Shown in pieces: positions 14,701 to 63,327 of a stretch of 64,000 bases of DNA. The stretch lies in IMG/VR virus record IMGVR_UViG_3300037424_000479. One strand, 5' to 3'. The notes beneath the pieces were generated by a model, which was given only the letters and a program-made list of their open reading frames with translations, was not told the origin of the DNA and did no database searches. The number at the start of each line of letters is the position of its first letter. Position 1 is the first letter of the stretch. The translations under genes were made by a program, and so were the position numbers. This DNA comes from a virus.

Positions 14701-15150
14701 GTGATGAAAAAGATATGGTTGTTGATGCTGATTGTGATTACTTCCTGTTCTCTTGGCTTTGATGTAGAAGAAGAACAGCCTATTGATAAACACTTCAAGA
14801 CGGTACATGAGGCGTGGATTTGGATAGCACGTAACGTAGAGTATGTGTCAGATCGGGATGTGCACGGGAAAGAAGAATACTGGCAGTATCCATGGGAAAC
14901 GTATCAGATGAAGACAGGGGATTGCGAGGATTATGCCATCCTGTTTATGTACTTCATGGAAGACATGGGGATAAAGAGTGAGTTTATAGCCATAGAAATA
15001 GAAGGGTATGGCTTTCATGCCGCTGTGTGTGTGAATGATCAGATACTATCCCCCCAACAATACGGGAGATATCACTACGTTGAGGAAGATGATATTATAA
15101 ATAGATTCTCATATCGGAGAATTTATAATATGATTCGCTATAAGCGATAA
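14701..15150 (+). CDS. Lipoprotein, transglutaminase-like cysteine protease (BTLCP-like)
   Basis: Signal MKKIWLLMLIVITSC; GDCEDYA catalytic Cys; FHAAV His. Confidence 0.8.
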   Translation: MMKKIWLLMLIVITSCSLGFDVEEEQPIDKHFKTVHEAWIWIARNVEYVSDRDVHGKEEYWQYPWETYQMKTGDCEDYAILFMYFMEDMGIKSEFIAIEIEGYGFHAAVCVNDQILSPQQYGRYHYVEEDDIINRFSYRRIYNMIRYKR

Positions 15151-42668: not shown

Positions 42669-43091
42669 ATGGCAGACGATACTGAGATTCGCACCAGGGT
42701 ATACGACACAGAAAAGAATCTTGCTAAGTTATGGACATTCGTCTATGAACTTGCGTCTGTCGTGTGGGGGGATAATACACGAAGGGATAATGGCATTCGT
42801 TCCCGCGTCATAGCTTTAGAGGCCCGTGCTAAAGAAGCTGAAGATGATAGAGACTCCCTTCGTAGAGAGCTTCGTCACTATTTAGACGTAAGTAGAGAAG
42901 AAACGTGTCATGGATTAAAGGCGCTTGCTGAAAGAGAGCAATCCGCCGAAAATGCTGTAAAGGAGGAGATTCCAGTGAAAATAGAAACCATCAAAGCGAA
43001 TAGTGCACAGAAAACACAAATTATTATCTTAGTAGGTGTAATTGTATCTGCCCTTCTAAATACGTTAGGGCTATTAATGAGGGTGTCCTAA
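42669..43091 (+). CDS. Coiled-coil protein with C-terminal TM, holin-like
   Basis: Single C-terminal TM; directly upstream of the peptidase. Confidence 0.5.
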   Translation: MADDTEIRTRVYDTEKNLAKLWTFVYELASVVWGDNTRRDNGIRSRVIALEARAKEAEDDRDSLRRELRHYLDVSREETCHGLKALAEREQSAENAVKEEIPVKIETIKANSAQKTQIIILVGVIVSALLNTLGLLMRVS

Positions 43092-43552
43092 TGATATATA
43101 CCGCACGTTTAGCTCATTTAGAACAGCCTCCCAAATACTCTGTCGGTACTATTATCAAACGAGGGGATGTTGTGGGGCGTATGGGAGATTCGGGTGCCGC
43201 TGATGGGGCACATCTACATCTCGATGTTGTGCGTGGTATGCAGACAGGTAGATATACGCTGGGAGATTTGGCACTGGGAAAACCTGAAGCCGATGCTAAA
43301 CAGGCCACTCTATTTATAGATGATGAACTGTTTGGTGTCCTGCCTCTCATTACTACCTATTATGCCGATCCCCGTTATTATAAAAAGTACGCTAAATTTC
43401 ATTATGGATACGATGTTGTTCCAGAAGATCGCTTATATAGTCAGAAACATTTCGATATTCATTGGAATCGTAGTATGCCTGGTAGAGTTACAAAGGTGTA
43501 TATAAATGATCCCGGATACGGAAACTGTATCCAGATTGCGTTTGAAATATGA
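43091..43552 (+). CDS. M23-family peptidase (endolysin), circularly permuted
   Basis: GDVVGRMGDSGAADGAHLH at N-terminus; HYGYD and GYGNCIQI at C-terminus. Confidence 0.85.
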   Translation: MIYTARLAHLEQPPKYSVGTIIKRGDVVGRMGDSGAADGAHLHLDVVRGMQTGRYTLGDLALGKPEADAKQATLFIDDELFGVLPLITTYYADPRYYKKYAKFHYGYDVVPEDRLYSQKHFDIHWNRSMPGRVTKVYINDPGYGNCIQIAFEI

Positions 43553-44139
43553 GTTTGCTTGATTTATTTCATAAGGCATGTAACAGCGCTGATAAAACAG
43601 CGGGCAATGAAACGCAATATGCTATAACAGAGGATACTTGTAACGTATACCTCGCTATACAAGGTTCAGTTGAATTTGAGGATTGGATATATAATTTTGA
43701 TTTTATAGCTAAACCATATAGAAATATGGGAGATGTGTGGTATACACATAGAGGCTTTGCTAATTGTTGGAAACTAGCTAGGGATCAGATTGTACAAGAG
43801 GTGCTTGACACATTAGGCAATAAAAGGTTAGTAATATTGGGGTATAGTCATGGAGCGGCAATAGCTCTATTAGCCCATGAGTATTTTGTTTATAATGGTT
43901 ATTCCCCTGAGACATATTGCTTCGGTTGCCCCCGTGTATTGTGGATACCTAATAAACGCATACTGTCTCGATTCACTAATGTGCATCTTATTTCACGGCG
44001 TGGGGATCTAGTTACTAAAGTGCCTTTTGCCTGGATGGGATTTAGACATCCAGTAAAGCAAACTTTATTCGGTTCTTCAGCTTTAACATGGTGGCGTCGC
44101 CATCTCATACCAGAATACATAGAAGCATTAGCAGAGTGA
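43549..44139 (+). CDS. Class 3 lipase (alpha/beta hydrolase)
   Basis: YLAIQGS..FEDW; HRGF; GYSHG nucleophile elbow; FGCPRV; DLVTKVP. Confidence 0.9.
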   Translation: MSLLDLFHKACNSADKTAGNETQYAITEDTCNVYLAIQGSVEFEDWIYNFDFIAKPYRNMGDVWYTHRGFANCWKLARDQIVQEVLDTLGNKRLVILGYSHGAAIALLAHEYFVYNGYSPETYCFGCPRVLWIPNKRILSRFTNVHLISRRGDLVTKVPFAWMGFRHPVKQTLFGSSALTWWRRHLIPEYIEALAE

Positions 44140-46842: not shown

Positions 46843-46907
46843 AGGTACCCCTAGACAAAAATATAACATTATGTATAATAAAGGTACCTCTATATATGGG
46901 GTACCTT
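46843..46907 (+). promoter_or_regulatory. Promoter with GGTACC-based inverted repeats
   Basis: TAGACA-16-TATAAT; AGGTACCCC (46843) / GGGGTACCT (46898); hairpin 46881-46907. Confidence 0.55.
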
Positions 46908-46932: not shown

Positions 46933-47895
46933 ATGCCTGTCGGAAAAACGAGAGTAACAGAAGTAATCGATTATGCGATGCTACATGGGGATAATGAGGC
47001 GGCTACCACATTCGGAATATCGCTGGGAGGAATAGAGCGATATAGGCGTAAATATAAAGAGATATACGGTGAGAGTGCCGATCTTGTTATGGCACTAAAG
47101 AAACAACTTACCGATGTAGAGCTGAAGATGATGCTTAATACGAGTAAGCGGCGTCCAGTTGTTACAGAAAGTAACCCTGTATCTATTGAAGGGGATCGAA
47201 TCAAATTCGGTGTTATAACGGATACGCATATAGGACATAAGGAATTTATACCCGAGTATCTTCGTACTGCGTTTGATATTATAAATAACTTTGGGGCTCA
47301 ATTTACGTTTCATGCAGGTGATGTAGTTGAAGGACTTATGAATCGCCCTGGGCATTTCTTTGAGTGTTCTCATTATGGATATAAAGCTCAAAGGGATGAA
47401 AGTGTTGCTCAGTTATCTTATTATAATAAGCCCCTATATGTTATCAACGGTAACCATGACGCGAGCATCAATAGCAAGTTGGGGGTAGGTATAGATATCG
47501 TAGAAGATATATGTGAGCGCATACCCAACGCTATATACCTTCCTGGTGATCCTGCTGATATTGAGATTAACGGAATTCGTTTTAGACTCTTCCATGGAAG
47601 GGATCGTGGTGGTTCCTACGCAAAGTCGTTTAGACCACAAAAGATACTGGATAGTTTCGGTATAGATATCCCGGACGTGCTTATGATAGGCCATGCTCAT
47701 TCAGCAGACTATTGTAAGTATAAAGGATGCCACCTAATCGATGGTGGGTGCATACAGCGTCTTACAGATTTTCAACGCGGCAATAAACTATCTGCTGATG
47801 TTGGATTCTGGACGGTAGATATGACGGTGCGAAACGGGAAGATCATAGCTATCTCCCCTACATTCTATGATCTAGAGGAGGTTATGAATGGCTAA
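46933..47895 (+). CDS. Calcineurin-like metallophosphoesterase with N-terminal HTH
   Basis: TDTHIG, HAGDVVEG, GNHD, HG, GHAH motifs. Confidence 0.9.
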   Translation: MPVGKTRVTEVIDYAMLHGDNEAATTFGISLGGIERYRRKYKEIYGESADLVMALKKQLTDVELKMMLNTSKRRPVVTESNPVSIEGDRIKFGVITDTHIGHKEFIPEYLRTAFDIINNFGAQFTFHAGDVVEGLMNRPGHFFECSHYGYKAQRDESVAQLSYYNKPLYVINGNHDASINSKLGVGIDIVEDICERIPNAIYLPGDPADIEINGIRFRLFHGRDRGGSYAKSFRPQKILDSFGIDIPDVLMIGHAHSADYCKYKGCHLIDGGCIQRLTDFQRGNKLSADVGFWTVDMTVRNGKIIAISPTFYDLEEVMNG

Positions 47896-48097
47896 CAGTG
47901 CAAAGAAGATATCTCTGGCGGGACAGATACTCATGGCTGTATGGGTGGCCGGGTGGTCTGCCTATATGTTCCTTGGGCCGAAGGTTATACCTATGATGGA
48001 TATAATTACTTCTGGTGTTGCTATTGCGGCGGCTTTTTCTCCTGTATACCTTAGTATATGGATAGATATGTTCAAGAAGAAGTCTGGTAATGAATAA
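47888..48097 (+). CDS. Holin (2 TM)
   Basis: 69 aa, two hydrophobic helices, basic C-terminus. Confidence 0.65.
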   Translation: MANSAKKISLAGQILMAVWVAGWSAYMFLGPKVIPMMDIITSGVAIAAAFSPVYLSIWIDMFKKKSGNE

Positions 48098-48467
48098 TGT
48101 TAAAACGCTGGCTATTAGTGTCGCTATTGGTATTGTCCTTTCCGGTATTGCTTTATTCGCAATCGGACAGAGCTTCTATAGTGGACGGATTGACAAACTT
48201 ACAGATCAAATTGCTCTCCTTGAAACAGGAAATAGAGACCTCACAGAGCAAAATACTAGCCTTAGAGAGCTTAATAGTACAGCTACAGTCGAGCTTGGAC
48301 AGCTCAGAAAGGAGCTACGAGACCAGGCTGAGTACCATAGAAGCGAGCTTGGCAGAATCAAAGGCGATCTTAGCTCTATCTCAGGAGACCTTAGCAAAAC
48401 AGGAGTTGGCATACAAGACGTTATCGACGGAATTGAACGCATTAAAGACATGGTTAAAAATTTATAA
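48090..48467 (+). CDS. i-spanin-like protein (N-terminal TM plus coiled coil)
   Basis: TM then heptad repeats; follows holin. Confidence 0.55.
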   Translation: MNNVKTLAISVAIGIVLSGIALFAIGQSFYSGRIDKLTDQIALLETGNRDLTEQNTSLRELNSTATVELGQLRKELRDQAEYHRSELGRIKGDLSSISGDLSKTGVGIQDVIDGIERIKDMVKNL

Positions 48468-48582
48468 AACAGGTATATACGTTCTCGGCGGCGTAGTCGC
48501 TGTAGAGACGGTATACATCATCATAACATATATCATAGGGGGGAATAATGGTACAACCGACGCACGCAATGACACTTACTAA
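48097..48582 (+). CDS. Spanin-like partner (signal peptide, coiled coil, C-terminal TM)
   Basis: ATG overlaps holin stop (TAATG); heptads; no Cys. Confidence 0.6.
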   Translation: MLKRWLLVSLLVLSFPVLLYSQSDRASIVDGLTNLQIKLLSLKQEIETSQSKILALESLIVQLQSSLDSSERSYETRLSTIEASLAESKAILALSQETLAKQELAYKTLSTELNALKTWLKIYKTGIYVLGGVVAVETVYIIITYIIGGNNGTTDARNDTY

Positions 48583-62407: not shown

Positions 62408-63010
62408 CTACTCTACTATCGCCGCTATATTCGACGGCTCCCATGACAAAATTATCTTATTGTCACGGATGTATTCATTTAGTTTTTCTATCCTGTCATA
62501 CAACTCAGGAGCTACTGTTGCTAGATCGCAGTCTTGTGCTAAGTCGTCTCCGTAGTAATCGTCGTCTATCTCTCGTGCATAAATTGGCTTACACCAGACG
62601 AGACACAAAGATGAAGGCTTAACATCATACTCCTCACAGTACATATCAAGGTCTTCCCTACAGAAGAAATACTCATCACCATTATATAGGCATATCGGTG
62701 TCTCTTCATCCCACCCTTGTTTTTTATAACTCTCAAATAGCTCTCTGTCTGACTTTTCTCGGCATTTCTCACATTGCATATAACCTGATATTTTCTCAAC
62801 GGGTGTTCCACAGTCAACACAGAACCTATGTGTGCATCCATCATAGCGCGCTATGCGTTCATCATTACCCCAAAATTTACCGCTTCGGGAAACCCAACCA
62901 GATAGATTCGTTACAAACTGCGCCGCTTCATTGGACGTACTTAATATCATCTCTTCAGGTTTCATAGCCATGGTCTCCCTTCCACGTAGTTCTCTGCTAA
63001 TACACCCCAA
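62408..63010 (-). CDS. Conserved phage hypothetical protein
   Basis: GWVSRSGKFWG.DERIARYDGCTH..C..CG motif; true start probably MAMKPEE. Confidence 0.7.
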   Translation of the reverse strand: MGCISRELRGRETMAMKPEEMILSTSNEAAQFVTNLSGWVSRSGKFWGNDERIARYDGCTHRFCVDCGTPVEKISGYMQCEKCREKSDRELFESYKKQGWDEETPICLYNGDEYFFCREDLDMYCEEYDVKPSSLCLVWCKPIYAREIDDDYYGDDLAQDCDLATVAPELYDRIEKLNEYIRDNKIILSWEPSNIAAIVE

Positions 63011-63327
63011 TCAGCCGAAAGGGGGAACCACGCATCAGGCTGATCCAGCTCTATATACGGAACAGGCCCGCCAGCCGCATTAAACTCCATAAGAGCGTCA
63101 TCGATCTTACAGGCAGACACAGCGAAGAGCCTACCATGATCGATGTATACCGCCCATATAGGCACACCCTCCGGGATAGCCCCACAGGTGATGGGCGGGG
63201 TTACTACATTCCCCTCCTTGTGCCCCTGCTTTAGTCCGCTCTCATAAGCACAAGAATATAGTATAGCGCAACTAAGAATCACGGCAAGAACAAGTAAAAG
63301 CCCCCAAGTCCATGGCATCCTCTTCAT
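62962..63327 (-). CDS. Hypothetical membrane-anchored protein
   Basis: N-terminal TM; SD AGGAGG. Confidence 0.55.
   Translation of the reverse strand: MKRMPWTWGLLLVLAVILSCAILYSCAYESGLKQGHKEGNVVTPPITCGAIPEGVPIWAVYIDHGRLFAVSACKIDDALMEFNAAGGPVPYIELDQPDAWFPLSADWGVLAENYVEGRPWL

Follow-up and report, generated by a model that had tools for sequence, protein, structure and literature searches.

Two ATG codons seven nucleotides apart open different reading frames in a virus genome (IMG/VR record IMGVR_UViG_3300037424_000479). An earlier note, made from the letters alone, took both frames for coiled-coil membrane proteins and proposed a spanin pair free of lipoproteins. The questions raised by the locus are whether both frames are genes and, if they are, what such a pair does. 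The window referred to below is the whole stretch of DNA analysed (64,000 nt); it represents most of a tailed-phage genome, for which the matching contig is 79 kb (Logan SRR12684511).

The pair and its locus

The pair is located at the end of the late-gene arm, where the gene order is M23 peptidase, lipase, an 884-aa gene without an assigned family, metallophosphoesterase, a two-transmembrane (TM) gene and the two overlapping frames, here called A and B. The arrangement described in the earlier note was borne out: A (48090–48467, +; 125 aa) starts at 48090, B (48097–48582, +; 161 aa) starts at 48097 in the +1 frame of A, and 371 nt (48097–48467, +) encode both, A's TM lying over B's signal and the two coiled coils following. 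A, predicted to be a type II inner-membrane subunit resembling an i-spanin, has an N-terminal TM at about residues 7–26 and then an uninterrupted heptad helix, as had been proposed. B carries a signal of the signal peptidase I (SPase I) type, predicted to be cut after about residue 21, and a heptad helix of about 100 residues, also as proposed. The C-terminal TM claimed for B stood less well, being only marginally hydrophobic and containing Glu; the bases for this helix (about residues 126–147) lie outside the overlap, just 3′ of A's stop (48472–48537, +). Neither protein contains Cys, in agreement with the note. The hydrophobic periodicity of A (3.54) and of B (3.50) was matched by none of 2000 shuffles each, and AlphaFold2 predicted one long helix per protein (pLDDT 95 for A and 91 for B), that of B comprising residues 2–149.

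Both genes start behind one ribosome-binding region (48074–48099, +), which contains a weak purine-rich stretch, A's ATG and a TAATG coupling the stop of the upstream gene to B's ATG; A's ATG falls inside the last codons of that gene. The upstream gene (47888–48097, +) encodes 69 aa with two TMs and belongs to a family of at least 43 clusters, whose members adjoin endolysins and classical spanins. Its position in front of the pair was correctly noted, and its description as a holin derives from shape and neighbours, the protein having no Pfam or PHROG match.

A Peptidase M23 gene (43091–43552, +), 4.3 kb upstream of the holin-like gene, is a candidate endolysin, and an M23 gene stands directly 5′ of the pair in two relatives (L190 and L181). 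It is followed in the window by a class 3 lipase gene (43549–44139, +) with a homologue in L190 (E 1.3e-19), a Treponema-family prophage with a lipase–M23–pair cassette, both genes (L190:356-1493) being directly 5′ of the pair. The lipase may be a lysis accessory.

Several other features of the region were recorded. Just 5′ of the M23 gene, positions 42669–43091 of the window encode a 140-aa coiled-coil protein with a C-terminal TM, and many relatives have small coiled-coil membrane genes of this kind next to the pair. The interval 46852–46907 contains a terminator-like hairpin and an 11/12 sigma-70-like match, and lies 5′ of the phosphoesterase, holin-like and pair genes. These genes are possibly a separate transcription unit; the promoter matches were not above chance. 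Beyond the window, the same contig (L191:2240-9936) encodes a DNA polymerase A that contains an intein and an HNH domain, and a ribonucleotide reductase carrying a LAGLIDADG insert.

A spirochete is the probable host, given that most of the named genomes in which the holin-like gene occurs belong to Treponema or other Spirochaetia and that the nearest ESM Atlas clusters of A and B are mostly from Spirochaetota (scores 0.86–0.91, a lead only).

Relatives of the pair

Direct searches with A or B gave no relatives in IMG/VR, a 90%-cluster collection or cultured phages. The two-TM holin-like gene had 43 relatives, the loci around which yielded the first pairs, and more were found via profiles. Altogether, 42 pairs were compiled, making 29 clusters at 50% B identity, with Spirochaetia or Treponema as the named hosts. 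The closest pair (L082) is 31% identical in A, without gaps, and 38% in B. Against profiles of the large Treponema clade built with the window pair excluded, B matched at E 2.7e-6 and A at E 2.7e-5; each was the top match among 243 window ORFs, and A's E value equals that of the best reversed decoy. The sequence link of the window to this clade is thus judged moderate. Pfam and PHROG matches to A and B were of a generic coiled-coil kind and below the cut-off, and no evidential weight was given to Rz-like PHROGs (E 0.03 and 0.08).

B lies in the +1 frame of A in all 42 pairs, under screens that accepted either phase. The starts are within −8 to +13 nt of each other in 40 of the 42, a count partly built in by start picking that favoured near pairs, and the twin starts of relatives are mostly ATGTG or ATGnATG behind one Shine-Dalgarno sequence. 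An independent test gave the same picture: 301 Treponema-family genomes were searched with one B protein, and in all 19 genomes with a hit (E<1e-5) the A frame was open and encoded a hydrophobic segment at the N-terminus.

Two of the loci are unusual in other respects. In L129 (32-679; P0071), a 91-nt deletion relative to L044 leaves one open frame in which the TM-bearing N-terminal half of A runs into the C-terminal half of B; this is either a natural variant or an assembly artefact. In L100 (603-1610), a reverse transcriptase lies beside an Mtd-like gene just upstream of the lysis cassette with the pair, a probable diversity-generating retroelement.

Dual-frame coding

It could be argued that the locus holds a single gene, the other frame being open since coiled-coil codons happen to avoid stops in a shifted frame. 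Gene callers do choose one frame per locus (A in one annotation, B in others), the window's own pair is known from its sequence, and A's frame stayed open in 3.4% of trials in which B's real codons were permuted. When synonymous codons were redrawn from the phage's own usage, however, B's frame acquired a mean of 11.7 stops when A was recoded, and A's frame 10.8 when B was recoded, the other frame being open in 0 of 20,000 trials in either direction. No open +1 or +2 frame was found among 5121 equal-length stretches from 14 other phage genes. Codon adaptation is lowered in both frames (0.60 and 0.52, compared with 0.68–0.73). The family argues against the one-gene explanation as well, with its single phase and paired starts across 42 pairs and with a TM or lipobox kept at A's N-terminus throughout.

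Selection was estimated from isolated changes in 10 independent close pairs. Changes altering both proteins were less frequent than changes silent in A (omega A 0.66, p 0.015) and less frequent than changes silent in B (omega B 0.51, p 6e-5). In addition, the order of variability among B's codon positions differs inside and outside the overlap: variation is lowest at its first position (the second of A) where the frames overlap, and at its second position in the tail outside the overlap. On both grounds, the two frames are under purifying selection, and an accidental second frame is highly improbable. The earlier note had named constraint on synonymous sites in homologues as a check and conservation of one frame alone as the outcome that would count against it; purifying selection was found on both frames, and both are conserved in the L082 homologues and in the genomes found with B. 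That both frames are genuine genes, and the dual coding real, is as good as certain.

Position in the lysis cassette

The loci reached via the holin-like gene include 11 with the pair and about 44 with an overlapped i-spanin and LxxC lipoprotein o-spanin (30 recognised by a script whose filter recovers about 70% of true pairs, and 14 by eye). The pair and a classical spanin occurred together in none of them within flanks of 1.5–4 kb. One apparent carrier of both systems, L133, was an artefact of the filter, which had counted the holin and A itself. The same filter, with its recovery of about 70%, detected no classical spanin pair in the window, and no N-terminal-TM ORF was found in 10 further kb of the contig, about 74 of whose 79 kb were thereby covered. 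The gene in front of the pair is holin-like or an endolysin, with nearly all loci co-oriented, and endolysins of the M15, M23, CHAP and Amidase_2 families stand directly 5′ of the pair or its holin. This replacement of classical spanins in their slot, together with the endolysin neighbours, supports the spanin-like role proposed in the earlier note.

The same context bears on a different possibility, in which A, through its N-terminus, and B, through its C-terminus, would both remain in the inner membrane and serve as a lysis accessory, either regulating the holin or forming a rod that weakens the envelope with no membrane fusion, the outer membrane being breached otherwise, for example by the lipase. 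Proteins with a signal peptide and a C-terminal hydrophobic helix normally adopt the type I topology in the inner membrane, the endolysin has a lipase beside it both in the window and in L190, and B's start is coupled to the holin-like stop. Yet it is the classical spanin that the pair stands in for, not the holin, and among the fetched loci the window's lipase matched that of L190 only. In eleven pairs, moreover, A is a lipoprotein and B is firmly anchored, a spanin-like topology. A role confined to the inner membrane is therefore considered unlikely, and a spanin role is preferred.

The slot is also filled in other ways. In L112 (reverse strand, after a holin-like gene) and L122 (1825-2509), an i-spanin-like gene in the spanin slot overlaps a second gene, whose product has a cleavable signal, a helical part and, at the C-terminus, a beta-strand region that closes with an aromatic residue; this product is possibly an o-spanin of the outer-membrane-protein type. 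A third variant, in L111 (1962-2357) and L117 (reverse strand, after a holin-like gene), has an i-spanin-like gene followed by one whose product is not a lipoprotein but bears a signal peptide and a hydrophobic tail rich in Gly. The two genes overlap partially in L117, and the second product has no detectable homology to B. DUF261 genes occupy the endolysin position beside a holin-like gene or the pair in L110 (1003-1476), L100 (3571-3987) and L003 (3494-3997), which suggests that DUF261 is an endolysin family. In the window, two lipobox ORFs (14701–15150, +; 62962–63327, −) lie outside the late region, without an i-spanin-like partner.

Membrane anchors

The description of the pair as free of lipoproteins applies to the window's pair and to about three quarters of the family; it does not extend to the family as a whole, in which 11 of the 42 pairs have a clear lipobox on A, never on B (a twelfth call, L133, is doubtful). 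The tail of B differs accordingly between the two types. By a rough approximation of the insertion score, B's tail has a median of −1.1, a firm TM, in the 12 pairs where A was called lipobox-bearing (one doubtful), mostly followed by three or more basic residues. In the 30 pairs with an uncleaved TM on A, the window's included, the median is +0.8, a marginal value (+1.4 in the window), and the tail often contains Glu and has more basic residues before than after it. The signal peptide of the window's B was judged by pattern.

The B proteins of the lipobox-A pairs are expected to be type I inner-membrane proteins. This covariation of the B-tail score with A's lipobox or TM suggests that usually one subunit would be firmly anchored in the inner membrane and the other free to face outward, a pattern that rests on about two contrasts, the second of them weak: the tree is poorly resolved and places the lipobox type in two clades. 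L124 and L127 depart from the pattern. In 12 of the 42 pairs both soluble parts are without Cys, and the window's is among the Cys-free pairs. A SAR-like reading of A's Gly/Ala-rich TM was dropped, the composition not being kept in relatives.

Comparison with known spanins

Like Rz/Rz1, which are embedded in lambda and T7 and overlapped in P2 and LambdaSo, the pair consists of two same-strand genes that share DNA in a lysis cassette, the second in the +1 frame, and one subunit (here A, by prediction) combines an N-terminal TM with a periplasmic coiled coil. The location agrees too, with a shifted-frame second gene behind a holin-like gene and with endolysin neighbours in relatives. The partner in Rz/Rz1, however, is a short lipoprotein whose gene starts about 0.4–0.5 of the way into the i-spanin gene (PMC6139136), whereas B is longer, of the SPase I type and all-helical, with a C-terminal hydrophobic helix and a start at A's start. 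In the window it is the i-spanin-like gene, A, that is the embedded one, and there is no lipobox o-spanin. The lambda spanin forms disulfide-linked dimers, which the window pair, having no Cys in A or B, cannot do. The nested Rz/Rz1 of LambdaSo (bioRxiv 10.1101/2024.01.23.576932) was considered as a precedent and set aside as a classical lipoprotein spanin.

The u-spanin gp11 of phage T1 resembles B in its N-terminal export signal and periplasmic domain, and perhaps in its C-terminal TM, which in B is marginal in the window and firm in the lipobox-A subtype. It differs in having a lipobox, in being mainly beta-sheet and in working alone, while B has no lipobox, is modelled as one long helix and is always found with A. 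By context, then, the pair is spanin-like, but in lipoprotein, Cys and start position it departs from Rz/Rz1, and it is not a u-spanin either. To our knowledge, every spanin characterised so far uses a lipoprotein to reach the outer membrane. We know of no established route to that membrane for a single C-terminal alpha-helix, so A and B may both be confined to the inner membrane.

Some hypothetical topologies were set out by Kongari et al. (2018), with a type I inner-membrane protein or an inner-membrane lipoprotein as i-spanin, or an outer-membrane protein as o-spanin. B matches the proposed type I architecture, which the lipobox-A subtype fits directly; these topologies were given without an example or a search, and the lipid-free subtype with a TM on A goes beyond them. 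No description of such a pair was found in a literature search whose scope excluded most subscription papers.

A copy in Treponema pallidum

TP0222 of T. pallidum (L147:1501-1947), annotated as a hypothetical protein, is a homologue of B (E 3e-27 to a B profile excluding it), and it hides an intact A frame of 123 aa (L147:1503-1874; E 1.7e-18 to an A profile excluding it) that starts 2 nt after the TP0222 start, with the ATGTG twin start of other relatives. The pair shares its B family and A frame with that of the window but is chromosomal, lying between vanY (TP0221) and an aminotransferase gene. No holin or phage genes were found in the 20 kb examined around it. The A frame is absent from the neighbouring annotations shown and, as an exact sequence, from the protein collection. 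TP0222 has been detected by mass spectrometry (supplement of PMC10600179), which shows that one organism does produce a B protein. The base change of a Nichols variant, E46D in TP0222 (PMC10013896), is also conservative in the hidden frame, as I46L.

A B hit was obtained in four of 41 genomes around T. pallidum, and the pair was present in none of 11 vanY loci of relatives. TP0221 was rejected as a remnant endolysin, vanY being a housekeeping gene present in 38 of the 41 genomes. Taken with vanY's housekeeping status, the scarcity of B hits and the 11 vanY loci without the pair suggest that the copy in T. pallidum is a captured module.

This copy supports the idea that the pair has an envelope function other than lysis, for example in superinfection exclusion, vesicle formation or membrane tethering, and rides with lysis cassettes as a cargo module: T. 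pallidum keeps both frames, with no holin or phage genes in the surrounding 20 kb, and makes TP0222. Nearly all other loci, however, are co-oriented and directly behind a holin-like or endolysin gene, with the classical spanin excluded there, and the few B hits around T. pallidum and the vanY loci of its relatives argue against the idea as well. Known spanins are, moreover, harmless while the peptidoglycan is intact. Such a cargo role is accordingly thought improbable, somewhat more so than an action within the inner membrane, and we return to the spanin reading.

Proposed function and mechanism

A and B probably form a non-canonical two-component spanin of a spirochete phage, a reading based mainly on cassette context, in which the pair takes the classical spanin's slot. 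A would be held in the inner membrane by its N-terminal TM as a type II rod, while B, after Sec export and removal of its signal by signal peptidase I, would pair with A as a periplasmic coiled-coil rod. ESMFold2 modelling of the two soluble helices gave a complex score of 0.38 against 0.00 for the best control (pLDDT 86), with contacts agreeing at 97% or more between runs and the orientation not given. The mark for this score was reached by 58 of 80 solved complexes and two of 110 mismatched ones; at 0.60 or below, only seven solved complexes and both mismatches were found. The model therefore offers weak support for the formation of an A–B complex.

In the window's subtype, B's C-terminal helix may be too weak to act as a firm inner-membrane stop, which makes it a candidate contact with the outer membrane; that the tail resides in the outer membrane is a tentative suggestion, with the chances somewhat against it. 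Once holin and endolysin had removed the peptidoglycan, the complex would rearrange and join or rupture both membranes. In the sister subtype the anchors would be swapped, with A a lipoprotein on the outer-membrane side and B a type I inner-membrane protein. The fullest version of this proposal would be a lipid-free two-helix fusion device with an undescribed outer-membrane route for the B helix, evolutionarily swappable anchors and coiled coils kept in register by shared bases, domesticated in T. pallidum as TP0222 and a hidden partner. As a whole, this is speculative and rather doubtful.

Whatever its function, the locus clearly exemplifies selection for two structured coiled-coil proteins on one set of bases; gene callers usually report one of the two. 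The T. pallidum copy means that existing spectra can be re-searched for the hidden frame, and the presence of B there outside a phage context leaves room for a non-lysis role. Among phages, 91 of 677 surveyed genomes were without a recognisable spanin (PMC6139136), and the pair is a concrete candidate for part of this gap, filling a topology that the authors of the survey had predicted.
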